DNA from: a virus
Length of the DNA stretch: 64,000 bases
Strand: one strand, 5' to 3'
IMG/VR virus record: IMGVR_UViG_3300037472_000016
Span: 1-64,000 of that record
The position numbers and the translations under genes are program-made. The notes under the pieces were generated by a model. That model did no database searches, was not told the DNA's origin, and saw only the letters and a list, made by a program, of their open reading frames with translations. Of the stretch, positions 1-25,137 are shown piece by piece; positions within the stretch are counted from its first letter, which is position 1, and the number at the start of each line of letters is the position of its first letter.

Positions 1-90
1 CTCGGTACGAACAACGATCTGCACAATAATCTCTTTTCTTTTTGTTATGATTGGGGGGGGCAGTTTGGTATCATGCCCAGGATAAACACA

Positions 91-240
91 CTATCCCTTG
101 ACCGTAGTCCAGCGAGTCTCGCCATTTACATCAAGACGAACACGCTTGTATCCATTCGAGTTCTCAATGATTTCTTTGACAATACCACTGACACCTGACT
201 TGGGGGTGACGAAGAGGGAATCGATAACGGGAGTAGCCAT
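91..240 (-). CDS. 49-aa small beta-barrel-like protein (paralog of 6146..6295)
   Basis: Manual translation MATPVIDSLFVTPKSGVSGIVKEIIENSNGYKRVRLDVNGETRWTTVKG; GAAAGGA RBS; promoter upstream. Confidence 0.75.
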   Translation of the reverse strand: MATPVIDSLFVTPKSGVSGIVKEIIENSNGYKRVRLDVNGETRWTTVKG

Positions 241-312
241 GTTGAGCATCCTTTCAGTGAGCCAACTATTTTTGTTTTGCCAGCAGGCGCTGGGCTTTTT
301 CCTACAATATGT

Positions 313-387
313 AGTCTATATGCTGGGAAACGATTTGTCTAGTCGTAATGGGTGTTATTTGGTAACAGTTTAGTAACAAGCCCGGCC
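313..387 (-). promoter_or_regulatory. Early promoter cassette
   Basis: -35 TAGACA (336-341), 17 bp, -10 TAGACT (313-318); GTAACA-N5-GTAACA at 362/373; GCCCGGCC 380-387. Confidence 0.75.
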
Positions 388-539
388 TGCCCTAGGCTTT
401 CCTGCGAAGACTCGGGGCACCTTTTTGTACGGGCGGTTATTTATATGCAAGCCTCCAGCACTAGTTCTACACGAACTAATAAATACTTTGGCTTGCACAC
501 CCTTTTCTCTTGTGTGCGTGTTACTCTTTACGGTCCAGC

Positions 540-749
540 CTAACTTCTACGGGCAGTGGTGCTGCCCCAAACAGCTATCACACAAACGACAAGCCATACC
601 CAATGCCAAACACTGCCAATATCTCCACCAGGGCCGAATAGTGCCAGGGCATTGATAACGCCAAAGACAATAGCGGTAATGGTAAGAGCAACACTAACAA
701 CACCTGCAATGATTGCAATGAGTATCAGGTTAGAGGTGCTCTTGTCCAT
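540..749 (-). CDS. Small two-TM membrane protein
   Basis: 69-aa ORF with two hydrophobic segments; TAATG-coupled to the upstream gene. Confidence 0.7.
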   Translation of the reverse strand: MDKSTSNLILIAIIAGVVSVALTITAIVFGVINALALFGPGGDIGSVWHWVWLVVCVIAVWGSTTARRS

Positions 750-892
750 TAGGATTCTTCTTTCTTGTTACCTATAAGCTGTTTGTGGATTGAGATAATA
801 CCCCCGACAAGTAGGCCAAAACCTCCCACGGTTAGTGCCAGCGGTACCAAAAGCAAAAGCCCAATACCTAGCAGTACAAAGAATAGCTCCAT
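749..892 (-). CDS. 47-aa membrane protein
   Basis: Manual translation MELFFVLLGIGLLLLVPLALTVGGFGLLVGGIISIHKQLIGNKKEES. Confidence 0.65.
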   Translation of the reverse strand: MELFFVLLGIGLLLLVPLALTVGGFGLLVGGIISIHKQLIGNKKEES

Positions 893-893
893 G

Positions 894-1082
894 CTATCCC
901 TCCCCTACGTTTGACCAATTTGATTTACGCATTTCGATAATTTGACCCACAGCCGCCATGCGGCCCGTGTCTCCAGAAGACTCGATCATTTCCCAATCAG
1001 TTTCTGTCCACTCTCCAGTGTCAACCACTACTGCGTCATAGGCGCTACCGTAGTTGCCGTCAGCGGCAAAGTAATGAGTCAT
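894..1082 (-). CDS. Hypothetical protein
   Basis: 62-aa ORF, TAATG-coupled. Confidence 0.7.
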   Translation of the reverse strand: MTHYFAADGNYGSAYDAVVVDTGEWTETDWEMIESSGDTGRMAAVGQIIEMRKSNWSNVGEG

Positions 1083-1363
1083 TAGTCTTCCATTCCATAG
1101 TGGTCAACAATCCAGAAGTCTAGGTGGTGCTGTTCGGCAATCTCCCAAGCAGGGGCGGTGTTCTTGCCCTGGTAGAATACCCCATCGGGCAGGGTAATGT
1201 CTTCATTCCACATACCCTCATTGCAGGCACCAATAGCCTCAATGCATGGGTCGATCATGCTGCCAGGTACTGGCGGATAGTGATTTGCGGATAGGTGCCA
1301 ACTCAGGGCAGACCTCATGTCTACATCCTGCTGTGCCATTTCCATTGCGCTCAGTGCTCCCAT
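1082..1363 (-). CDS. Hypothetical phage protein (WHLxxNHYPPVP motif)
   Basis: Start reassigned to ATG 1363, which overlaps the upstream stop (TAATG); 93 aa. Confidence 0.75.
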   Translation of the reverse strand: MGALSAMEMAQQDVDMRSALSWHLSANHYPPVPGSMIDPCIEAIGACNEGMWNEDITLPDGVFYQGKNTAPAWEIAEQHHLDFWIVDHYGMED

Positions 1364-1539
1364 TAGGATTCTTCCATTTCTTCTACGAGTTCGATGAGTT
1401 CTTTGGCCAACACAACAAGCCTGGTGCGTGCTCTGTCTTCGTACAATGAAGAGCCTACCACATACTCTTCCCACTTGCCAATCACAACTGCTAGGTCGTA
1501 TGCCGCATTCTCGTGACGGCAGTAGTCCATGCTAGGCAT
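1363..1539 (-). CDS. 58-aa hypothetical protein (MxYCRxEN motif)
   Basis: Manual translation MPSMDYCRHENAAYDLAVVIGKWEEY...; GAAAGGA RBS. Confidence 0.7.
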   Translation of the reverse strand: MPSMDYCRHENAAYDLAVVIGKWEEYVVGSSLYEDRARTRLVVLAKELIELVEEMEES

Positions 1540-1561
1540 GTTGTTCCTTTCGTTTGATTAG

Positions 1562-1585
1562 AGTCTAACCCATACCCCTGACATT
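1562..1585 (-). promoter_or_regulatory. Promoter with AATGTCRG box 10 nt upstream of the -10
   Basis: AATGTCAG-N10-TAGACT; same geometry at 4865-4888 and 5140-5163. Confidence 0.6.
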
Positions 1586-1593
1586 GCGGGGTA

Positions 1594-1683
1594 TCAAGAG
1601 ACAACAGAAGACAACAAAATAATAAACATTGCCAGAATCGCTCCTAGTACAAAGAAGATAACAAAGTCTACAACCTTCTTCAT
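1594..1683 (-). CDS. 29-aa single-TM peptide
   Basis: MKKVVDFVIFFVLGAILAMFIILLSSVVS; ATGA overlap with the upstream gene. Confidence 0.55.
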   Translation of the reverse strand: MKKVVDFVIFFVLGAILAMFIILLSSVVS

Positions 1684-1817
1684 GCTTCTACCTCATACCC
1701 AATTACTTCCCAGCAGGTGAGACACCCACCAGGAATATCGTTTGGGTCTTGGATAAAGGTGTGGTGCCTTCCAAAAAGGATTTCGTGGAAAGCAACTTTT
1801 GATTCAAGAGTACTCAT
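1680..1817 (-). CDS. 45-aa hypothetical protein
   Basis: Manual translation MSTLESKVAFHEILFGRHH...CLTCWEVIGYEVEA; GAAAGGA RBS. Confidence 0.6.
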   Translation of the reverse strand: MSTLESKVAFHEILFGRHHTFIQDPNDIPGGCLTCWEVIGYEVEA

Positions 1818-1840
1818 GTTGTGTCCTTTCGATTAATCTC

Positions 1841-1905
1841 AGTCTATATCCTGGGAAAGATTTTGTCTAGTCGTAAAGGTCTCTATTTGATAACGCTGCC
1901 CGGCC
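1841..1905 (-). promoter_or_regulatory. Early promoter cassette
   Basis: TAGACA-17-TAGACT (1864-1869, 1841-1846); CTGGGA 1851, CGTAAA 1872, ATAACG 1890, GCCCGGCC 1898. Confidence 0.75.
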
Positions 1906-1949
1906 AGAAGCCCCACAAGATTGTCAAGTCCTGTGAGGCTATCGTCTAC

Positions 1950-2132
1950 CTAGACTTCGTATGCCGCATCGATAAAGCGCTCACGCAAAAAGCGCTCATT
2001 GTCTGCCGCAAACATATCTGCAAATGAGTGAACCAAAACGTCAAAGTCTTGGTCTTGCTCAACTGTCACAGAATCTTTGTAGAACTGGTTTAGGATAGTG
2101 CTGGTGCTGATGTAATCGCGTCGTGTCATCAT
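1950..2132 (-). CDS. Hypothetical protein (MTRRDY...DNERF motif)
   Basis: 60-aa ORF; RBS; TAGACA-17-TAGACT promoter at 2176-2204. Confidence 0.75.
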   Translation of the reverse strand: MMTRRDYISTSTILNQFYKDSVTVEQDQDFDVLVHSFADMFAADNERFLRERFIDAAYEV

Positions 2133-2201
2133 GGTGTTTGCCCTTTCATTGGCGTGTGCTTTACTTGTTGTTATTAGTCTACACGGGGGTAGAGTGTTTG
2201 T

Positions 2202-2369
2202 CTAGTCGGAGTCTTTGTAGTCTTTGATTGCTTCTGTCAGATACATACCGCCCAAAACTGCAAAGATGGGACCGAGTACGCTAAGCCAAATGGCTCCAGT
2301 GATACCACCAACGGTGCTAAATAGCAAGCCAGTGACGATGTTTAGAATTGCTTGTGGCATTAGCATCAT
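2202..2369 (-). CDS. 55-aa membrane protein
   Basis: Manual translation MMLMPQAILNIVTGLLFSTVGGITGAIWLSVLGPIFAVLGG... Confidence 0.6.
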   Translation of the reverse strand: MMLMPQAILNIVTGLLFSTVGGITGAIWLSVLGPIFAVLGGMYLTEAIKDYKDSD

Positions 2370-2530
2370 TATGAATACTCCTTTACTGCGGCACCGAGGG
2401 CACCTGCGCGTGTACGAATTCGACGGTATCGAGTGTCTAGGTGAGTCCCCGCCTTATTAGAGCGACGAATCTCACGCATGGCCTGAATGTACTCAGGGTT
2501 AGCAGTCTTGGAATAAGCTTTCTTTGTCAT
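2369..2530 (-). CDS. 53-aa basic protein (EIRRSN motif)
   Basis: Manual translation MTKKAYSKTANPEYIQAMREIRRSNKAGTHLDTRYRRIRTR... Confidence 0.7.
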   Translation of the reverse strand: MTKKAYSKTANPEYIQAMREIRRSNKAGTHLDTRYRRIRTRAGALGAAVKEYS

Positions 2531-2566
2531 GACTAAATCCTATCAGAAGACTGCTGGGGTAGCAAA

Positions 2567-2764
2567 TCAGTAATCACTATCGACCTCATACCCATCTCGA
2601 ATGAGATTGTCGATGTATTCATTCAGCCCTGCACGATATGCAATGGGGTCTAACTCATACAATACTCTTGATGGATAGAAAGAAATGCCCATTACCTCGA
2701 TCATCGGAGCATCGTCTAGGGAATCTTCGAATTGCTGGAAGGCTTGGTGCTTGGTGATTTTCAT
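2567..2764 (-). CDS. Hypothetical protein (PSxVLxELDPIAYR motif)
   Basis: Start reassigned to ATG 2764 with GAAAGG RBS; TTGACA-17-TAGAAT promoter at 2790-2818. Confidence 0.75.
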   Translation of the reverse strand: MKITKHQAFQQFEDSLDDAPMIEVMGISFYPSRVLYELDPIAYRAGLNEYIDNLIRDGYEVDSDY

Positions 2765-2792
2765 TAGTTTACCTTTCGTCGTTGATATGATT

Positions 2793-2906
2793 CTAGTTGT
2801 TTTCGCTGTCAATGTCAAGGGTATTGCCAAGTCCATCCTCAAAAATGCAATCAGGGTCACCAGGCATGGTATGAAACATCTCGTGAGTGTCGCAGAACGT
2901 GTTCAT
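2793..2906 (-). CDS. 37-aa acidic Cys/His peptide, leaderless
   Basis: ATG 6 nt after -10 TAGACT; MNTFCDTHEMFHTMPGDPDCIFEDG... Confidence 0.55.
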   Translation of the reverse strand: MNTFCDTHEMFHTMPGDPDCIFEDGLGNTLDIDSENN

Positions 2907-2912
2907 GATATG

Positions 2913-2986
2913 AGTCTAACATTCTGGGAATAAAAGCACAACCTACGTAAAGAGTATTTGATAACGTTTCTATAACGTACCCGGCC
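2913..2986 (-). promoter_or_regulatory. Early promoter cassette
   Basis: -10 TAGACT 2913-2918; CTGGGA 2924, CGTAAA 2946, ATAACG 2961/2972, ACCCGGCC 2979; near copy of 3323-3396. Confidence 0.7.
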
Positions 2987-2993
2987 CCTCCCC

Positions 2994-3203
2994 TCAAAGC
3001 CCAAGATGGTGGGCAAAGTCATCAACCGCATCATGGGCTACCTGCCGGTCATGCTCGGCCAGCCAACGATAAAACTCACCCCTTGCCCCACCTCCCGCGA
3101 GGTGTTCTTGGTAGTCCTTGTCGCTAGGGAACTCAACCTGATCGTAAGAGCGGTCATACGCATCAAAAACGTCTTCCGTTGTCGGCGTGTACTCGTCACT
3201 CAT
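2994..3203 (-). CDS. Hypothetical protein (YTPTTEDV...FxRWLAEHDR motif)
   Basis: 69 aa from ATG 3203; ATGA overlap. Confidence 0.75.
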   Translation of the reverse strand: MSDEYTPTTEDVFDAYDRSYDQVEFPSDKDYQEHLAGGGARGEFYRWLAEHDRQVAHDAVDDFAHHLGL

Positions 3204-3316
3204 GACCACGCCCCATAAGCAATTTCAAATTGAGCCATTGCCAACTCAAATTGTCCAGACTCATCAAAGTATTCGGATGCGTCTTCCGAGGTCCAAGCGT
3301 TCATTTTCTCTTCCAT
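3200..3316 (-). CDS. 38-aa acidic peptide, leaderless
   Basis: MEEKMNAWTSEDASEYFDESGQFELAMAQFEIAYGAWS; ATG 6 nt after TAAGAT. Confidence 0.6.
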   Translation of the reverse strand: MEEKMNAWTSEDASEYFDESGQFELAMAQFEIAYGAWS

Positions 3317-3322
3317 GTTTTT

Positions 3323-3396
3323 ATCTTAACATTCTGGGAATAATTAAGCAACCTACGTAAAGGCTTTCTATGTAACGGTTTGGTAACGGGCCGGGC
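3323..3396 (-). promoter_or_regulatory. Early promoter cassette
   Basis: TTGCTT-17-TAAGAT; CTGGGA 3334, CGTAAA 3356, GTAACG 3372/3383, inverted octamer GGCCGGGC 3389. Confidence 0.7.
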
Positions 3397-3422
3397 ACAC
3401 CTTTCGGTGTTTGTCAAACCCC

Positions 3423-3947
3423 CTAAATTGCGCTACCCCGAATAACAATCCAAATAAGGGCTTGAATTGTCCGATTAGTCATTCCCGTTTTACGAGCAAT
3501 AACACTAACCGCCTCAGACATTTCGCGGTATTGCGTTTTATTAGGAGAATCCGAATTGACTAATGCTGCACGCATCATCCAGATATCAATAACAATTGCA
3601 TCCTCATCGCCTGCAATAGCACGAGCGAATGCATTAGTCTTAGGGCCACGCAATGCGTCAAATCCATTAGTAATAGCTTCATTAGCCATACGGATATTGT
3701 TAGGCAAGCCACGGACTTCTAAGCCTAATGAGAATGCAATGGCTTTCGACACGTTGGATGCCCAACGCTCACGAGGTGAGAATGCAGAAACTACACTGGC
3801 ACCAACCTCTACGCTGACATTTAGGTTCTCTGCCACTTCACGAGCTACGTTCTCAGCATCGTTATACCAAGTGGATGCATCTTCAATCTGTCCGAGGGTA
3901 GCACGAGCAACCAAGGCAGAGAATCGGTCGGTGTAGATATCAATCAT
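3423..3947 (-). CDS. HhH-GPD-like DNA glycosylase-fold protein
   Basis: LRGPKTNAF...IVIDIWMMR...IQALIW resembles the HhH Lys plus catalytic Asp motif. Confidence 0.55.
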   Translation of the reverse strand: MIDIYTDRFSALVARATLGQIEDASTWYNDAENVAREVAENLNVSVEVGASVVSAFSPRERWASNVSKAIAFSLGLEVRGLPNNIRMANEAITNGFDALRGPKTNAFARAIAGDEDAIVIDIWMMRAALVNSDSPNKTQYREMSEAVSVIARKTGMTNRTIQALIWIVIRGSAI

Positions 3948-4017
3948 GAGGTTTTCCCTTTCGTCGTACCCTTAGTCTAATGCATAGAATTAGAAAAAGT
4001 CAACCTAAAAAAGAAAG

Positions 4018-4126
4018 CTGGGATAAAGCTGGGAATCTTCATAAACAGCCTTAAAGACTTGACATTTATGATAGGATGCCCGGCCCCTCACAGGTAATTG
4101 GCAGCTAGCTCACAGGCTAATCACAG
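4018..4126. repeat. 11-bp-phased hexamer array around GCCCGGCC
   Basis: CTGGGA 4018/4029, CATAAA 4040, CTTAAA 4050; octamer 4078; inverted TCACAG 4088/4110/4121. Confidence 0.75.
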
Positions 4127-4128
4127 AG

Positions 4129-4278
4129 TCAGTTGGGAACGTCATATCCCCATTTGGCTAATTTTTCTTGCATAACGCAAATCTGCCTACGCAATTGCCT
4201 AGCACTAACCATTTCGTCTTTATCAGAATTGGCAACTGTCCAATTGATAATGTATTCAAGCATTTCATATTCAGTCAT
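4129..4278 (-). CDS. 49-aa hypothetical protein
   Basis: Manual translation MTEYEMLEYIINWTVANSDKDEMVSARQLRRQ... Confidence 0.55.
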   Translation of the reverse strand: MTEYEMLEYIINWTVANSDKDEMVSARQLRRQICVMQEKLAKWGYDVPN

Positions 4279-4287
4279 TGATAATTC

Positions 4288-4440
4288 CTATTCTGGTAAT
4301 TCATAAGTCTTTAGAAGAAACTCACAAAATTCAATTCGGCTTATAAACCAATCTGTGCTAGGCGTACCATTATCAACAAATGACTTATTTGCAGCGATAA
4401 TGTTTAGAAGGTCGGCCTGCGTTAGTATAAACTTTTCCAT
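4288..4440 (-). CDS. 50-aa hypothetical protein
   Basis: MEKFILTQADLLNIIAANKSF...; AAAGAAAGAGAGAG RBS. Confidence 0.6.
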   Translation of the reverse strand: MEKFILTQADLLNIIAANKSFVDNGTPSTDWFISRIEFCEFLLKTYELPE

Positions 4441-4467
4441 TGTGCTCTCTCTTTCTTTGATTCTGAT

Positions 4468-4545
4468 TTAGCAATAAGGTATGCTGCAAATGCTAAACGG
4501 TATAAACAATGCAATTACCAATAACACGATAAACAAATACTTCAT
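4468..4545 (-). CDS. 25-aa hydrophobic peptide
   Basis: MKYLFIVLLVIALFIPFSICSIPYC; ATGA overlap. Confidence 0.4.
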   Translation of the reverse strand: MKYLFIVLLVIALFIPFSICSIPYC

Positions 4546-4685
4546 GATACTAAATGTCCAAACTCTTCTGGCATATATTTAGCGGCATCAGCATAAGTGA
4601 CAATACCGTCATACTCATTACAGGTACGACAAATGTATTCCCCTGGGTCTTTGCCACAGTAAATACAAATGGTTTTATCTTCCAT
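4542..4685 (-). CDS. 47-aa C4 zinc-finger miniprotein (paralog of 6631..6750)
   Basis: MEDKTICIYCGKDPGEYICRTCNEYDGIVTYADAAKY...; GAAAGGA RBS. Confidence 0.7.
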   Translation of the reverse strand: MEDKTICIYCGKDPGEYICRTCNEYDGIVTYADAAKYMPEEFGHLVS

Positions 4686-4711
4686 TTCTATTCCTTTCTT
4701 TATCACTAACA

Positions 4712-4834
4712 TTACCGAGTGGTAACGGTTAGCGCTCCCATTTCCATAAAGGTATCAATAGCAGAGTTTACTGCCCAAGGGTCAACCTCAATGCTGAGGG
4801 GCGATGCATTTGCGAACGTTGCAGTGATTTCCAT
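4712..4834 (-). CDS. 40-aa hypothetical protein
   Basis: MEITATFANASPLSIEVDPWAVNSAIDTFMEMGALTVTTR; purine-rich RBS and promoter at 4865-4888. Confidence 0.6.
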   Translation of the reverse strand: MEITATFANASPLSIEVDPWAVNSAIDTFMEMGALTVTTR

Positions 4835-4887
4835 TAGATTTTCTCTTTCTTTTTCGTTTGATTTATTCTAGCACGTACCACCGACAT

Positions 4888-5115
4888 TTAGTCGCGGTAG
4901 CCGTAGGTATTCTCTTTGAGGGCAACGAATGCCGAATACGTGTCATTGATAGCACGAGAGACGTTTACCTTGTTTAGATCACCACGGAATGACCAGTGAT
5001 TGCAGTAGTACTCGTATTTCTGTTCTACTGTCAGGATATTAGCGTTAGCCCATTCCTGCATGTCTTCTGTGAGATTGCTGAAAGCATCTGCCACATCGTC
5101 TAGCGTTTTGTTCAT
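4888..5115 (-). CDS. Hypothetical protein
   Basis: 75-aa ORF; GGAAGAGG RBS; promoter at 5140-5163. Confidence 0.7.
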   Translation of the reverse strand: MNKTLDDVADAFSNLTEDMQEWANANILTVEQKYEYYCNHWSFRGDLNKVNVSRAINDTYSAFVALKENTYGYRD

Positions 5116-5188
5116 TAGATTTCCTCTTCCTTTTCCTCTAGCTTAGCACGGCCCACCGACATTACCTAATCCTAGAGGCATTATTTTG

Positions 5189-5279
5189 GTAACAGTTTGA
5201 TAACGGAAAGCTGGGAATAATCTGCGAATATACGTAAAGGTGTCTTAAAGCTACCTGAGAGTTAGCTGAGCGCCCGGCC
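5189..5279. repeat. Eight-hexamer array in exact 11-bp register plus octamer
   Basis: GTAACA 5189, ATAACG 5200, CTGGGA 5211, CTGCGA 5222, CGTAAA 5233, CTTAAA 5244, CTGAGA 5255, CTGAGC 5266, GCCCGGCC 5272. Confidence 0.85.
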
Positions 5280-5330
5280 CATTTCTGTTTTTTGTCAAGG
5301 CGACACGCCGCCTCACAGCGGATTTACAGC

Positions 5331-5477
5331 CTACATACGGGCAAGCAAATCCATTTCATTATCAATATCGATATCGTGCTGTTCTGCACAGCTATCAGAC
5401 ATATTGGTAACAATGCAAGAGTTATTGCAATAGCAACGGAAAGGGACTGCATAAGCCCAACGCTGGATGTTATTCAT
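5331..5477 (-). CDS. 48-aa Cys-containing hypothetical protein
   Basis: MNNIQRWAYAVPFRCYCNNSCIVTNMSDSCAEQHD... Confidence 0.45.
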   Translation of the reverse strand: MNNIQRWAYAVPFRCYCNNSCIVTNMSDSCAEQHDIDIDNEMDLLARM

Positions 5478-5507
5478 TATATATATACCTATTCTATTAG
5501 ATTCTTA

Positions 5508-5645
5508 TTAGTTGTGGATATAAACTACCGTGGTAAACCTACCACGATTTTTACCATCGGACATTATGGATTTAGTTGGATTGCATGAGCAAGCTTTACC
5601 ATTGTGTCCGATAATGCTGCCAGACTTTACGATATGACGTTCCAT
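5508..5645 (-). CDS. 45-aa hypothetical protein
   Basis: Start reassigned to ATG 5645 (MERHIVKSG...) with a purine-rich RBS. Confidence 0.6.
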   Translation of the reverse strand: MERHIVKSGSIIGHNGKACSCNPTKSIMSDGKNRGRFTTVVYIHN

Positions 5646-5735
5646 GATTTTCTTCTTTCTGTTAGATTCTTTTTTGCTATGTCTATAGCTTAGCATGGCA
5701 CCAGCCAGATAGCAAGCCCAAGCACCCCCTTTTTG

Positions 5736-5955
5736 GTAACAGATTTGTAACAAGAAGCTGTGAACAACCTGGGAACTAACTTAAAGGAGTCTTATGCTTA
5801 CCTGTGAATTACCTGAGCGCCCGGCCAAACTGTGAATATGCTGGGAATATTCTGGGAAAAACTTAACCTTATCGTAAATTTGTATTAATACAAAGCAACC
5901 GACCGACCCCTTGCGGGTCGGCTACACCTGGGAGTTGTCTGTGAACTCCCTGTGA
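5736..5955. repeat. Second eight-hexamer 11-bp array plus octamer and further phased hexamers
   Basis: GTAACA 5736/5747, CTGTGA 5758, CTGGGA 5769, CTTAAA 5780, CTTATG 5791, CTGTGA 5802, CTGAGC 5813, GCCCGGCC 5819; then 5830/5841/5852 and 5928/5939/5950. Confidence 0.85.
5899..5922 (-). terminator. GC-rich hairpin, putative terminator
   Basis: CCGACCC-cttgc-GGGTCGG downstream of 5958..6053. Confidence 0.45.
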
Positions 5956-5957
5956 GC

Positions 5958-6053
5958 CTAGCTAACGGCTACCATATATACCGCCGTTCCGCAATTCCCA
6001 CAGGCACGGATGAAGGTAGGGTACTGGCACTTGGAGCACTTGTATTCTGTCAT
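5958..6053 (-). CDS. 31-aa CxxC-CxxC zinc-ribbon peptide
   Basis: MTEYKCSKCQYPTFIRACGNCGTAVYMVAVS; AAGAAGAGGA RBS. Confidence 0.65.
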   Translation of the reverse strand: MTEYKCSKCQYPTFIRACGNCGTAVYMVAVS

Positions 6054-6116
6054 GATTTCCTCTTCTTGTTAGTATCAGTCTAGTCTATGACCTGCACCTA
6101 TTGCAAGCCATAGACC

Positions 6117-6403
6117 CAACTTTATGCTGGGAGTTTGCTGATAGCCTAGGCTACCTTTACCATGCTCCATTTCTCAGCGGTATCGCTGACCAGTCGCACT
6201 CGCACGAGTCCATGAGTAGCAGGTACTATCTCAGCGATGGTACCAGTAAAGCCAGACTTAGGCGATACGTATTGCTGACCGATTGTTAGTGTCATGATGT
6301 TTCCTATCTGTTAGATTCTTTGTCCTTGTAGTATCAGTATAGTCTGACTAGGGCAGACAGCGCAACTCCTAGAGCAACTTTATGCTGTGAGTTTGCTGAT
6401 AGC
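6117..6403. repeat. Direct repeat of about 29 bp (6117 and 6375)
   Basis: CAACTTTATGCTG(G/T)GAGTTTGCTGATAGC, each copy upstream of a leftward promoter. Confidence 0.8.
6146..6295 (-). CDS. 49-aa small beta-barrel-like protein (paralog of 91..240)
   Basis: MTLTIGQQYVSPKSGFTGTIAEIVPATHGLVRVRLVSDTAEKWSMVKVA. Confidence 0.75.
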   Translation of the reverse strand: MTLTIGQQYVSPKSGFTGTIAEIVPATHGLVRVRLVSDTAEKWSMVKVA

Positions 6404-6478
6404 TGCTCGGTGCTGCCATAGGACTAGCGCATAGGCTAAGGTCAGCGGTACCATGATGAGAAAGAATTGCATTACCAT
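6380..6478 (-). CDS. 32-aa single-TM peptide
   Basis: MVMQFFLIMVPLTLAYALVLWQHRAAISKLTA. Confidence 0.45.
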   Translation of the reverse strand: MVMQFFLIMVPLTLAYALVLWQHRAAISKLTA

Positions 6479-6500
6479 GTCTGTATCCTATCTTGCATTA

Positions 6501-6609
6501 CTGGGAAATACCTGTGTGTAACGTAGACGCAGCCTGTGTATTGGCTGAGAGTCGGGTCGGGTCGGGTAGCCTGTAAGTTACCTGAGTGCTGCCTGGGCAC
6601 TGGCTGGGA
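6501..6609. repeat. Phased CTG-hexamers flanking (GTCGG)3
   Basis: 6501/6512/6534/6545 and 6571/6582/6593/6604. Confidence 0.7.
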
Positions 6610-6630
6610 GCCTCTCACGCTCCCTTACCG

Positions 6631-6750
6631 CTATGCCGTTAGATAGTCCATAGCGTCTCGGTATCCCATGATACCCTTGTACTCACCACAGCGACGGCAG
6701 ATGGTGGATTCTACTGGCATAACGCAGAAGATGCAGACTTGTTGTTCCAT
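6631..6750 (-). CDS. 39-aa C4 zinc-finger miniprotein
   Basis: MEQQVCIFCVMPVESTICRRCGEYKGIMGYRDAMDYLTA. Confidence 0.7.
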   Translation of the reverse strand: MEQQVCIFCVMPVESTICRRCGEYKGIMGYRDAMDYLTA

Positions 6751-6892
6751 GATGTTACTCTTTTCTGTTAGATTCTTTTTTCTTGGCTATGTTCTTTTTT
6801 TCTTATAGCTATAGCTTAGCACAGGTTTAGGGCCTCGCACTACCAAAATTGAAAAATAAAATAAAAACCTTTTCTCACTTATGGGGTGGTAC

Positions 6893-6942
6893 CTGTAGTG
6901 TGCTCACTAATTAACTGTGAATTTGCTGTGAGTTTACTGTAT
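6893..6942. repeat. Phased CTGTGA array
   Basis: 6893/6915/6926/6937; minus strand reads TCACAGC-AAAT-TCACAGT. Confidence 0.75.
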
Positions 6943-7090
6943 GGTACAAATCAACAATATTTTCAGATTGTTCCCAAAATAGACTTAGCCAGATATCCGG
7001 CTGTCACATCTTGTCACAAATAAATATTTTTTCAGATTTTCAGAAATGTGTATTTTTCCGGGTATCAACAACATCCTCTTGACACAATAG

Positions 7091-7476: not shown

Positions 7477-7720
7477 ACATCAATCATACACTGTTTCCTT
7501 TGACATTTATGCTGAACACTGTCAAAATTATACCAAAAACAGTATAGTTTTGGCATATCTGTTTATCCGTATATGTCAATAGCAACATATCAACAAGGAA
7601 CAGACTCCTATTGGGCACATCACCCCTTCGGCTAGTCTATTTTTCGCGGTATTGGAGGCATCGCCTCTCTTGATTATTTTCTAACAATCACTCTAGGGGA
7701 TAACACCTATCTAGCTATCC

Positions 7721-7806
7721 GGCTATGGGGATAGGGGCTAGTGGGCTATGGGGCTAGTGGGCTAGGGGTTTGTGGATAGCTGTTTGTGGCTATTCATTTG
7801 TGGCTA
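7721..7806 (+). repeat. G-rich GGCTA repeats with G-quadruplex potential
   Basis: Six G3-4 runs with 3-5 nt loops at 7727-7768. Confidence 0.7.
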
Positions 7807-7976
7807 TCGTTGAGTATTGTGATACCGCGTTCATTAGAGCGTTAGTGGATAGTGTTTCTCTCTCACGCGAAAACTAAGCCCGAACTTACTCTCCCGCCGA
7901 GACAATTCTCTCGAACTTGCCTACTTGTTTAACGAGTGTTTCTCCGTATATCATAAACTAACTGTATACTTATTGT

Positions 7977-8339: not shown

Positions 8340-8502
8340 ATACTATATATTATATAGAAGATATCTAACTAGCTATTAGTATCACTTCTCTCTCAATTAT
8401 CAATTATACACACTTTTCAAGTGTTGTTGACCACATGAGGATAACGATTCTATAACGATTGAGTTACATGCCTAGATTGTTATGATTCTGTTACAATAGA
8501 GT

Positions 8503-23167: not shown

Positions 23168-23545
23168 ATGAAACAACAAAAACCTCGATTCCCTGGTCAA
23201 ATTGGTGACACAAAAGTAAACGTAATCCCCAAAATGTACGATTGGGGAGTGTACTACTGGAAGCTTCCTAACGGAAGAAAATTTTCAGACGGAAGCGGGA
23301 ACTTTCTTACAATTGCGTCAGACAAGGGCGACCTTGCAAAGATTCAGCAGTTGCAAGATGCGGCGGCACATTACGGAAGGCCAGACGGCACTGCGGTATT
23401 TGAGGCTGGTGCAAGAAAGATCACCGACGAAGAGCACTCCGAACAGATTGATCGTCTAAAGCAGGGAATGATTCCCAGCCTTAATGACTTGGGTGCCATT
23501 CACGCAGCACAGCAAACGTTTAGGGCTTACGGGGACAACGACTAA
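23168..23545 (+). CDS. Hypothetical protein upstream of portal
   Basis: Leaderless start at ATG 23168; TAATG-coupled to portal. Confidence 0.7.
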   Translation: MKQQKPRFPGQIGDTKVNVIPKMYDWGVYYWKLPNGRKFSDGSGNFLTIASDKGDLAKIQQLQDAAAHYGRPDGTAVFEAGARKITDEEHSEQIDRLKQGMIPSLNDLGAIHAAQQTFRAYGDND

Positions 23546-25137
23546 TGAATGAATATGTCGTCCCCGCTAGCATTGACGAAGCGATAGAAGCTGATGAAAC
23601 GTTCAACAGGCAAGACCCATTCAACAAGACATGGGATGACGTAAAATCTTATTCTGGTATGGAAAAAAACTTTAAGCGTCGGGCAGACCGAATGAAAAAG
23701 TTTGACCAGTCACCACAATACCTAGATTCTGCAATGGCTAACAGTTCAGGAATAAAGGGGGCACAGTCAAAAGAAATTAACCCAGGCACTGTTTATCGAA
23801 ACGGTTACGGAATGTTTGACGTTATTACGCCGCCCTGGAATATGTATCAGCTAGCAAACTTCTACGACACCTCTTTTGCAAATCATGCTGCAATTGATGC
23901 AAAGGTTGCTAACATTGTCGGTCTCGGATATTCCATTCAGAATTCAAGCAGAGCACAGCTTGCCATTGAAAACTCCACAAACGGAACAGCCACAGACAAG
24001 GCAAGAAAAAGACTTGAGCGTTCCAGGGTCGAGCTTGAAGAGTGGCTAGAAAGCCTCAATAGCGATGACTCGTTTACGCAAACACTATCTAAGTTTTATA
24101 CAGATGTTCAGGCAACGGGCAACGGATACTTGGAGGTTGGTCGCACAGTCAATGGAGACATTGGATATGTGGGTCACATTCCGGCTACCACCGTAAGGGT
24201 ACGTAGGCTAAGAGACGGCTTCGTTCAGATTATTGGAAGCAAGGTTGTGTACTTTAGAAATTTTGGGGCATCTAACCAAAATCAAATTACAGAAGACACT
24301 AGGCCAAACGAGATAATCCACTACAAGGAGTATTCACCACTTAATACCTTTTATGGTGTACCAGACATAATGTCTGCAATATCTTCATTGCAAGGTGACC
24401 AGTTGGCCTCACAGTACAACATTGATTATTTTGCAAATAAGGGTGTTCCCAGGTATATCATAACTCTTAAGGGTGCAAAGCTTTCCCCTGATGCAGAGGA
24501 TAAGATGTTCAGATTCTTGCAGACTAGCCTTCGTGGTCAGTCTCACAGAACTCTTTATATTCCGTTACCCGGAGATTCTGACACCAACAAGGTTGAGTTT
24601 AAGATGGAGGCCGTAGAAAACGGGGTACAGGAAGCCTCATTCAAAGAGTACAGAAAAGAAAACAGAGATGACATTCTTATCGCTCACCAGGTGCCCCTAT
24701 CAAAGATTGGTGGAGGAGATTCCTCTGCAATCGCAGCTTCTATAGCACAAGACAGAACCTTTAAAGAGCAGGTATCAAGGCCAGCACAGAGAAACCTAGA
24801 GAAGTCTATTAACAAGATCGTTCACGAAAAGACAGACATGCTTGACTTCAAGCTTAATGAGTTGACTCTAACTGATGAAAACGTTGAGTCTCAGATTGTT
24901 GAGAGATACGTCAAGACTCAGGTGATGACAATTAACGAGGCACGAGACAAGATCAACCTCCCCCCACGAGACGACGGAGACAAGGCATTTGAAATGTCTT
25001 CTAGGCAGGCTACGGACATGAGAGCAAACGTTGCACAGAACAGACAGAGAGATTCTGAAAGAGCAAACGAGCAGTCTGACGGAACAGCAACAGTGTCTGG
25101 GAGAAACGCCCAGGGAGAGGGACGTTCTTCTTCATAA
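23545..25137 (+). CDS. Portal protein
   Basis: GNGYLE, NEIIH, YGVP, YFAN.G.P, TINEAR motifs. Confidence 0.9.
   Translation: MNEYVVPASIDEAIEADETFNRQDPFNKTWDDVKSYSGMEKNFKRRADRMKKFDQSPQYLDSAMANSSGIKGAQSKEINPGTVYRNGYGMFDVITPPWNMYQLANFYDTSFANHAAIDAKVANIVGLGYSIQNSSRAQLAIENSTNGTATDKARKRLERSRVELEEWLESLNSDDSFTQTLSKFYTDVQATGNGYLEVGRTVNGDIGYVGHIPATTVRVRRLRDGFVQIIGSKVVYFRNFGASNQNQITEDTRPNEIIHYKEYSPLNTFYGVPDIMSAISSLQGDQLASQYNIDYFANKGVPRYIITLKGAKLSPDAEDKMFRFLQTSLRGQSHRTLYIPLPGDSDTNKVEFKMEAVENGVQEASFKEYRKENRDDILIAHQVPLSKIGGGDSSAIAASIAQDRTFKEQVSRPAQRNLEKSINKIVHEKTDMLDFKLNELTLTDENVESQIVERYVKTQVMTINEARDKINLPPRDDGDKAFEMSSRQATDMRANVAQNRQRDSERANEQSDGTATVSGRNAQGEGRSSS

Follow-up and report, generated by a model that had tools for sequence, protein, structure and literature searches.

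Several OmpR/PhoB-family response regulators of Actinobacteria are described to bind short direct repeats spaced about one DNA turn apart. The MtrA operator of Corynebacterium glutamicum has the consensus (A/G)TAACAATttn(A/G)TAACAAT (Brocker et al. 2011, as given in PMC3353115), and GTnAC-N6-GTnAC sites are shared by MtrA, GlnR, and AfsQ1. Mycobacterium tuberculosis PhoP binds TCACAGC-N4-TCACAGC, and binds three- and four-unit repeats 4 to 9 times more tightly than two-unit repeats (PMC4832192). The MprA box of the MprAB-PepD envelope-stress module (M. tuberculosis mprA-mprB-pepD) appears to be a TCTCAG-type hexamer pair with a 5-nt spacer, which reads in the direction of transcription (compare He and Zahrt 2005). 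Sites for host regulators of this family are also known on phage promoters, namely CtrA boxes in phages of Alphaproteobacteria (PMC9437464) and pho boxes read by host PhoB in cyanophages (PMC10976474), where phage expression follows a host signal. Here, we examined an uncultured actinobacterial phage (IMG/VR record IMGVR_UViG_3300037472_000016), of which positions 1 to 64,000 are referred to as the window. A sequence-only reading had noticed that the intergenic DNA of its early region is built from RTAACR, CTGDGA-like, and CKTAAA-like hexamers repeated with an 11-bp period, and had proposed that the phage either wires its early promoters to several host two-component systems or uses this DNA as a sponge for host regulators. 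Compared with the CtrA and pho boxes, the hosts and regulators differ; two box types are here joined in one module at early promoters, and are expanded in this phage to arrays of up to eight units. We found no paper describing this module.

The periodicity was confirmed by an unbiased count of hexamers matching themselves (at most 1 mismatch) at offset d, which peaked at d = 11 in positions 1-7000. The rate was 19.9 per kb, 3.5 times the 5.6 per kb obtained for 7-88 kb, and 139 matches were observed against 34.6 +/- 9.0 in Markov-1 shuffles (z = 11.6). Spacings between the three hexamer classes were 11 (17 pairs), 22 (11), 33 (5), 44 (6), and 55 (4), with at most 3 at any other distance, and no such series was seen in the rest of the genome. 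Thirty phased units lie in 1-7000, 28 of them on the minus strand, against 6 in the 81-kb middle of the genome, and more copies lie at 88-95 kb of the record, outside the window. As the minus strand is transcribed, the units read TCNCAG, TTWAMG, and GTTAYC. The sites listed in the sequence-only reading exist (Table 1), though those at 6127, 6385, and 6501-6609, which it had counted as further arrays, proved to be partly or wholly degenerate. Notably, the CKTAAA class is not enriched on its own (1.1 per kb against 1.2 per kb) and stands out only by its phase and position. The two eight-unit arrays, whose spacers had been said to differ, are paralogues with 75% identity overall, 83% at hexamer positions and 65% at spacer positions, and this claim is only partly true; the stronger evidence for selection comes from unrelated phages.

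Table 1. Promoters, phased hexamer units, and neighboring elements of the early region (window coordinates).
Position	Strand	Feature
313..341	-	Early promoter: -35 TAGACA (336-341), 17-nt spacer, -10 TAGACT (313-318); TCCCAG unit (323-328) inside the spacer, ATTACG unit at 344-349
362..387	-	GTTAC pair (362-367 and 373-378), 49 and 60 nt before the -10, followed upstream by the GC box GGCCGGGC (380-387)
1841..1905	-	Early promoter TAGACA-N17-TAGACT (1841-1869) with TCCCAG in the spacer (1851-1856), TTTACG (1872-1877), single GTTATC (1890-1895), GC box (1898-1905)
2913..2986	-	Early promoter with -10 TAGACT (2913-2918), TCCCAG (2924-2929), TTTACG (2946-2951), GTTAT pair (2961-2966 and 2972-2977), GC box (2980-2986)
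3323..3395	-	Early promoter with -10 TAAGAT (3323-3328), TCCCAG (3334-3339), TTTACG (3356-3361), GTTAC pair (3372-3377 and 3383-3388), inverted GC box (3389-3395)
3974..4126	-	Promoter TTGACT-N18-TAGACT (3974-4003), TCCCAG pair (4018-4023 and 4029-4034), TTTAAG (4050-4055), GC box (4078-4085); three TCACAG units in the opposite orientation (4088, 4110, 4121), in phase with one another
5140..5168	-	Early promoter: -35 TAGGTA, 17-nt spacer, -10 TAAGCT
5189..5279	-	Eight-unit array in exact 11-bp register; 5'-3' on the minus strand: GC box (5272-5279), CTCAG, TCTCAG, TTTAAG, TTTACG, TCGCAG, TCCCAG, GTTATC, GTTACC; units 115 to 49 nt before the -10
5687..5715	-	Early promoter: -35 TTGCTA, 17-nt spacer, -10 TAAGCT
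5736..5826	-	Paralogous eight-unit array in the same order and register as 5189-5279; GC box at 5819-5826
5830..5878	-	Second upstream cluster: TCACAG, TCCCAG, TCCCAG (5830, 5841, 5852), then GTTAAG and TTTACG (5863, 5873)
5902..5922	-	Terminator-like hairpin that interrupts the arrays
5928..5955	-	Three TCNCAG units at 11-bp spacing, upstream of the hairpin
6127..6143	-	One TCCCAG plus a degenerate TATCAG, upstream of a TAGACT -10 near 6082
6385..6401	-	One TCACAG plus a degenerate TATCAG
6501..6609	-	Degenerate NNNCAG series at 11-bp spacing, in three sub-registers separated by a GTCGG x3 run; phase break
6893..6942	-	TCACAG pair (6915 and 6926) flanked by degenerate units, 102 and 113 nt before the TAAGCT -10 at 6813-6818

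The units occupy fixed positions relative to sigma-A-type early promoters. The GTTAY pair lies 60 and 49 nt before the -10 hexamer at promoters 318, 2918 (59 and 48), 3328, 5145, and 5692, and a single TCCCAG lies 10 or 11 nt before the -10 at five promoters. All units of an array share one orientation. The units are spread over at least ten intergenic regions, each tied to a promoter, while the replication genes lie at 52-60 kb, which does not fit replication-origin iterons forming one cluster at a single origin. A similar layout is found in the early region of Streptomyces Stanwilliamsviridae phages such as Coruscant, which also has a leftward array of small early genes, each preceded by a terminator, a GC-rich box, an 11-bp-spaced repeat pair, and a sigma-A-type promoter with a TAAGCT -10. 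Coruscant, however, has GGCGCCCGGCGCC and TAGATG-N5-TACATC in place of GGCCGGGC and the GTTAY or TCNCAG units.

We next searched for the core module, TCNCAG x2 followed by GTTAYC x2, which occurred in 73 IMG/VR stretches and once in 596 Gb of prokaryote genomes, while a reversed control pattern gave no hits. A variable-gap scan gave an inner gap of 6 in 73 stretches, 17 in 1, and 28 in 4, and only 6 stretches fell on any of the 26 out-of-phase gap lengths. Positions not forced by the search still carried information (linker CAAAT, AAT before GTTAY, and G after TCTCAG), while the flanks carried about 0 bits. The -35 lies 49 nt (16 cases) or 59 nt (23 cases) from the start of the module, one helical turn apart. 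These results indicate that the hexamers and their phase are under selection. The module occurs in at least three phage lineages, and four complete module-bearing phages (G430, G431, G433, and G434; GC 44-64%) and the present phage share no protein family common to all five. No Trans_reg_C domain, which is the winged-helix DNA-binding domain of OmpR-type regulators, was found in any of them. Three of five phages tested encode WhiB, and so does the present phage. In contrast, its close relatives by capsid protein (G001, G002, and G004; GC 35-38%) lack the boxes and the 11-bp signal entirely.

Both box types were also found at host genes. TCTCAG-N5-TCTCAG gave 217 matches against 26 for the control in 301 Actinomycetia genomes (8-fold enrichment), and in five genomes the box lies between a HAMP-HisKA-HATPase_c kinase gene and a Trypsin_2+PDZ (HtrA-like) protease gene, which is the MprA-box position. 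In these hosts it sits about 25 to 30 nt before the protease start codon, in the -35 area, whereas in the phages it lies about 80 to 95 nt upstream of the start site and is followed by a second box type. The consensus in 63 phage modules is TCTCAGG-N4-TCTCAGG, but the present phage mostly uses TCCCAG and TCACAG, together with TCGCAG and only one or two TCTCAG. Its TCACAG units, in runs of two or three, match M. tuberculosis PhoP sites in their 11-bp period, though the seventh base (C) is not kept and TCCCAG is commoner. The GTTAYCAAANNGTTAY box gave 28 matches against 1 in 401 genomes, at conserved intergenic sites. The phage consensus ATYGTTATCAAATYGTTAT corresponds to the reverse complement of the C. 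glutamicum MtrA consensus over 14 to 16 of 16 specified positions, linker included, while copies in the present phage such as GTAACAGTTTGATAACG match less fully. This site lies upstream of the -35, where MtrA sits when it activates. Genes next to the host GTTAY boxes are mixed (sugar ABC transport, fatty-acid synthase, NlpC/P60, GH3, MoxR, and rhodopsin), which suits GlnR at least as well as MtrA; by sequence, MtrA cannot be told from GlnR- or AfsQ1-type regulators, nor MprA from PhoP-type.

As far as sequence analysis allowed, the host-regulator interpretation of the sequence-only reading was supported, and we favor it with moderate confidence. The arrays are thought to be tandem binding sites for response regulators of a host not yet identified, built into the upstream regions of the early promoters, where the TCNCAG units are the MprA / M. 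tuberculosis PhoP kind of site, the TTTAAG-like units may be variants of it, and the GTTAYC pairs are the MtrA / GlnR kind. That host regulators bind, which ones, and whether the effect is activation are inferred from sequence. Each regulator would bind as a head-to-tail dimer, or as a longer oligomer on the longer arrays, to repeats 11 bp apart. Because the boxes sit at fixed, helically phased distances upstream of the -35, bound, phosphorylated regulators would lie on one face of the DNA next to RNA polymerase and would most likely raise early transcription. A protein bound to the TCCCAG inside the -35/-10 spacer of five promoters would instead hinder the polymerase.

It is less likely, though possible, that the repeats are operators for phage-encoded DNA-binding proteins, such as an early or middle switch protein of unknown fold, and that their likeness to host sites is coincidence or mimicry. 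Many small early ORFs have no Pfam match, the absence of the boxes from capsid relatives of different GC content is expected if box and binder travel together, and the spacer TCCCAG looks like a shut-off operator. The present phage also shares a few small proteins with the 40-kb module-bearing phages, such as the zinc-ribbon protein at 73009-73191 of the record. However, G434 shares no protein family with the other module-bearing genomes and yet carries two modules, and this view is further opposed by the lack of a Trans_reg_C domain, by the enrichment of both box types at conserved host sites, and by the match of the GTTAY box to a published host consensus.

A role mainly as a sponge, in which many genome copies with about 50 half-sites each titrate the envelope-stress and cell-wall regulators and blunt the host response, with control of transcription secondary, also appears unlikely. 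The present phage and G432 carry far more units than the single four-unit module of the 40-kb phages, some clusters (5830-5878, 5928-5955, and 4088-4126) lie far from a promoter, behind a terminator, or in the opposite orientation, and M. tuberculosis PhoP prefers longer repeats. Nevertheless, a sponge has no need of the quantised distance to the -35, and most phages carry only one module per genome. The fixed geometry favors the wiring alternative, whereas a sponge is neither needed nor excluded. An origin in DNA shape (bent or under-wound DNA, or a UP-like element), in injection or packaging, or merely in the residue of duplicated promoter cassettes is very doubtful. The two best arrays are indeed paralogues, the GTTAY boxes are A/T-rich and upstream of the -35, and the region is probably the arm of the genome that enters the cell first. 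Against this, the same hexamers recur in phages whose flanks carry about 0 bits of similarity, in a phage of 64% GC, and at host genes; three distinct hexamer classes occur in ordered pairs; and the period is an exact 11.0 bp rather than 10.5 bp.

A more speculative and rather doubtful possibility is that actinobacterial phages of several unrelated lineages use the envelope-stress signal that their own adsorption and DNA entry provoke (MprAB and MtrAB activation) as the trigger for immediate-early transcription, and that large phages such as this one have multiplied the sites into arrays that also soak up the regulators and so blunt the stress response of the host. The same two-box module sits at quantised distances from early promoters in unrelated phages, so these viruses probably tie their first genes to host stress signalling.

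The 95,215-bp IMG/VR record (GC 45.5%, estimated 88% complete), hereafter G000, of which the window is the first 64 kb, encodes a portal protein that is 46% identical to those of Streptomyces phages of the family Stanwilliamsviridae. Its capsid protein has more than 599 relatives in IMG/VR, and the record encodes a WhiB protein; it is therefore an uncultured actinobacterial phage. Positions 1-7000 hold some 25 small genes on the minus strand, and the same arm continues at 88-95 kb of the record. A megablast of 1-7000 against GenBank phages gave no match, and the 174-aa early protein (DUF7178) has no relatives in IMG/VR by pattern search. Host assignment was attempted through the WhiB protein, which returned only phage contigs mis-binned into MAGs of several phyla.

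The periodicity was examined by counting hexamers that match themselves, with at most one mismatch, at every offset from 6 to 39. In 1-7000 the count peaked sharply at offset 11, with a rate of 19.9 per kb against 5.6 per kb in 7-88 kb, and 139 matches were observed against 34.6 +/- 9.0 in Markov-1 shuffles (z = 11.6). Spacings between the three hexamer classes of the sequence-only reading were 11, 22, 33, 44 and 55 in 43 pairs, with at most three pairs at any other distance. Read on the transcribed strand, the units are A = TCNCAG, B = TTWAMG and C = GTTAYC. Thirty units with an in-phase neighbour lie in 1-7000, 28 of them on the minus strand, while only six lie in the 81-kb middle of the genome, four of which sit just past the strand switch. 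The two best arrays have eight units in the same order and register. Notably, their hexamer positions are 83% identical and their spacer positions 65%, so they are paralogues, and the claim of the sequence-only reading that the spacers differ is only partly true. Class B is not enriched on its own.

Each intergenic region reads, 5' to 3' on the minus strand, a GC box GGCCGGGC (10 copies on one strand and 2 inverted, all in the early arm), then the repeat units, and then a promoter of the sigma-A type, which is TTGACN- or TAGACA-like with a 17-18 nt spacer and TAGACT or TAAGCT. The geometry of these regions is fixed, as collected in the table. In the two long arrays, the A, A, B, B and A units continue the register of the C pair out to 115 nt. 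A second promoter type, TTTACG-N16-TCCCAG-N4/5-TAGACT, has one A unit inside the -35/-10 spacer at five promoters, and its -35 and -10 hexamers themselves fall into the 11-bp register of the flanking units. This type is specific to G000; a search with TTACG-N15-17-TCCCAG-N4-5-TAGACT gave 5 stray hits. An iteron or origin reading of the repeats was rejected because the units are tied to many promoters. The same cassette logic with different boxes was observed in Streptomyces phage Coruscant (1-11300), in which each early intergenic region reads terminator, GGCGCCCGGCGCC, TAGATG-N5-TACATC (an 11-bp pair that is also an inverted repeat), TTGCAT, 17 nt and TGTAAGCT.

Locations of promoters, repeat units and neighbouring features (window coordinates unless stated)
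Feature	Location	Strand	Description
Long arrays	5189-5279; 5736-5826		Eight units each
Promoters with a C pair	-10 begins at 318, 2918, 3328, 5145 and 5692		C pair starts 60 and 49 nt before the -10 hexamer (59 and 48 at 2918)
Promoter with a single C unit	1846		C unit at 49
Promoters of the TTTACG-N16-TCCCAG-N4/5-TAGACT type	313-349; 1841-1877; 2913-2951; 3323-3361
GC boxes	380-387; 1898-1905; 2980-2986; 3389-3395; 4078-4085; 5272-5279; 5819-5826 (and 88-95 kb of the record)		Directly upstream of every array
60-aa early protein	1950-2132	-	MTR(K/R)DY ... DN(P/E)RF motif
Tandem units past the strand switch	7700-7830		GGGCTAKKGGG-like units followed by three DnaA-box-like TTTGTGG(A/C)TA units
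In-phase units past the strand switch	8441-8494		Four units
Opposed GTTAY-N6-GTTAY boxes	8441-8497		Two boxes in opposite orientations, 38 bp apart
Modules of G434	23260-23900 of that record		Two full modules and a third CTCAG pair abutting a -35

Just past the strand switch, the first of the two opposed GTTAY boxes overlaps the spacer and -10 of a rightward TTGACC-N18-TATAAC promoter, a position that would repress. The tandem units nearby, with their DnaA-box-like repeats, may be an origin or another set of host-protein sites.

Phages close to G000 by capsid protein but with lower GC (G001, G002 and G004; 35-38%) have none of the boxes and no 11-bp peak, and the boxes and the 11-bp signal were likewise lacking in the capsid relatives G006-G010. 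The arrays therefore do not follow the structural-gene lineage. In contrast, the composite C-C-A-A pattern taken from the two long arrays has 73 hits in IMG/VR viral contigs, whereas the same pattern read backwards has none. A search of 596 Gb of prokaryote genomes gave one hit, on a 1.7-kb contig of an Actinomycetota MAG, and this MAG showed no enrichment of GTTAY pairs. The pattern TTCCCAG-N4-TTCCCAG was too unspecific, giving 119 or more hits, none with arrays. When the gap between the C pair and the A pair was left free from 0 to 28 nt, 73 stretches had a gap of 6, one had 17 and four had 28, while only six fell on any of the 26 out-of-phase gap lengths. In the 63 distinct copies the flanks carry about 0 bits of information, but positions not forced by the search pattern are conserved, giving tTCTCAGGtAAT TCTCAGGAAAT YGTTATCAAAT YGTTATCAAAA. 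A good -35/-10 pair follows at 49 nt (16 cases) or 59 nt (23 cases) from the start of the module, one helical turn apart, and both G000 arrays use 59. About 10-60 nt after the predicted -10, transcripts driven by the module begin with lineage-specific stem-loops, for example CAGCTGAAGAGTTCAGCTG, which are probably 5' stabilising hairpins.

Most module-bearing contigs belong to another phage type, with 40-50 kb genomes and a different terminase and portal. The complete genomes G430, G431 and G433 each have exactly one A pair and one C pair, which together form the module. G434, a 64% GC phage, shares no detectable protein with any of the others, yet it has two modules, each in front of a TTGCGN-N17/18-TAGACT promoter; together with its third CTCAG pair, all lie before TAGACT or TACAAT promoters. 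G432, a fragment of a larger phage, has 11 C pairs, GGGCCGGCC boxes and an 11-bp peak, like G000. At the place of the GC box of G000, G432 has GGGCCGGCC and Coruscant has GGCGCCCGGCGCC, while the 40-kb module-bearing phages have other palindromes there (TTGTCGACAA, GCAGCTGC). Furthermore, the 60-aa early protein of G000 has homologues in 21 of the module-bearing loci, and in many of the 40-kb phages it is the first gene downstream of the module.

A phage-encoded regulator was also sought. The G000 record has no Trans_reg_C domain, and Pfam scans of 76 non-structural ORFs found no helix-turn-helix regulator, only WhiB. Of five module-bearing contigs tested, three encode WhiB and none has Trans_reg_C. 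No protein family is common to all five genomes (G000, G430, G431, G433 and G434). A binder encoded by the host is therefore the simpler reading.

On the host side, TCTCAG-N5-TCTCAG, the A box, occurs 217 times in 301 Actinomycetia genomes, against 26 for the reversed control, and several matches share a conserved context. In five genomes the box lies between a HAMP-HisKA-HATPase_c kinase gene and a Trypsin_2+PDZ (HtrA-like) protease gene, which appears to be the mprB-pepD arrangement of M. tuberculosis, where MprA binds. The phage form of the C box, GTTAYCAAANNGTTAY, occurs 28 times against once for the control in 401 genomes, whereas the looser pattern GTTAY-N6-GTTAYC in Microbacteriaceae was only about 1.5-fold over control. 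Six Actinomycetia genomes of 1.3-1.4 Mb keep three GTTAY units at an 11-bp period in the divergent region between a SIS-domain gene and a sugar ABC binding-protein gene, which is a candidate host regulon site in streamlined genomes of freshwater type. Three genomes of about 5 Mb keep ATTGTTAYCAAATYGTTAT, the exact MtrA-consensus form, upstream of a type-I fatty-acid synthase gene.

The C. glutamicum MtrA consensus is (A/G)TAACAATttn(A/G)TAACAAT, and MtrA sits upstream of the -35 when it activates (PMC3353115). The phage C box is its reverse complement, linker included. Streptomyces MtrA binds a related direct repeat with a 5-nt spacer (PMC5650626). However, MtrA also acts on the GlnR-controlled nitrogen regulon in M. 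smegmatis (PMC13718301), and the two regulators appear to share GTnAC-type sites, so that the C binder cannot be named with certainty. M. tuberculosis PhoP binds TCACAGC-N4-TCACAGC as a tandem dimer, and binds three or four repeats 4 to 9 times more tightly (PMC4832192), which fits the runs of TCACAG in G000. C. glutamicum MprA is reported to bind TKTTAAGAAM (PMC12113857), which resembles class B, and classes A and B may be variants of one site type.

The most likely reading, which is inferred and held with moderate confidence, is that host response regulators of the MprA/PhoP type and the MtrA/GlnR type bind in tandem upstream of the early promoters, on one face of the helix, and modulate early transcription, probably by activating it. 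The single TCCCAG inside the spacer of five promoters would be expected to repress when occupied. A phage-encoded binder remains possible but is considered unlikely. A mainly titrating role for the expanded arrays of G000 is likewise doubtful as the principal explanation, though it is compatible with the main reading, and DNA shape or mere duplication is regarded as very unlikely.

Phages are known to borrow single host regulators, namely PhoB in cyanophages (PMC10976474) and CtrA in phages of Alphaproteobacteria (PMC9437464), for which sites in phage promoters have been described. In the literature searched, nothing was found on MtrA, MprA or such modules in actinophages, and as far as we could find the theme is unpublished. 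The present finding would be a first case for Actinobacteria and for envelope-stress and cell-wall two-component systems, and it would show a portable two-box promoter module, with exact geometry, shared by unrelated phages. It would also supply natural, compact stress-responsive promoters and, for hosts that cannot be grown, offer a way to infer regulator specificities from their phages. Furthermore, it gives a directly testable route to the question of how uncultured freshwater actinophages time their early genes and sense host state.
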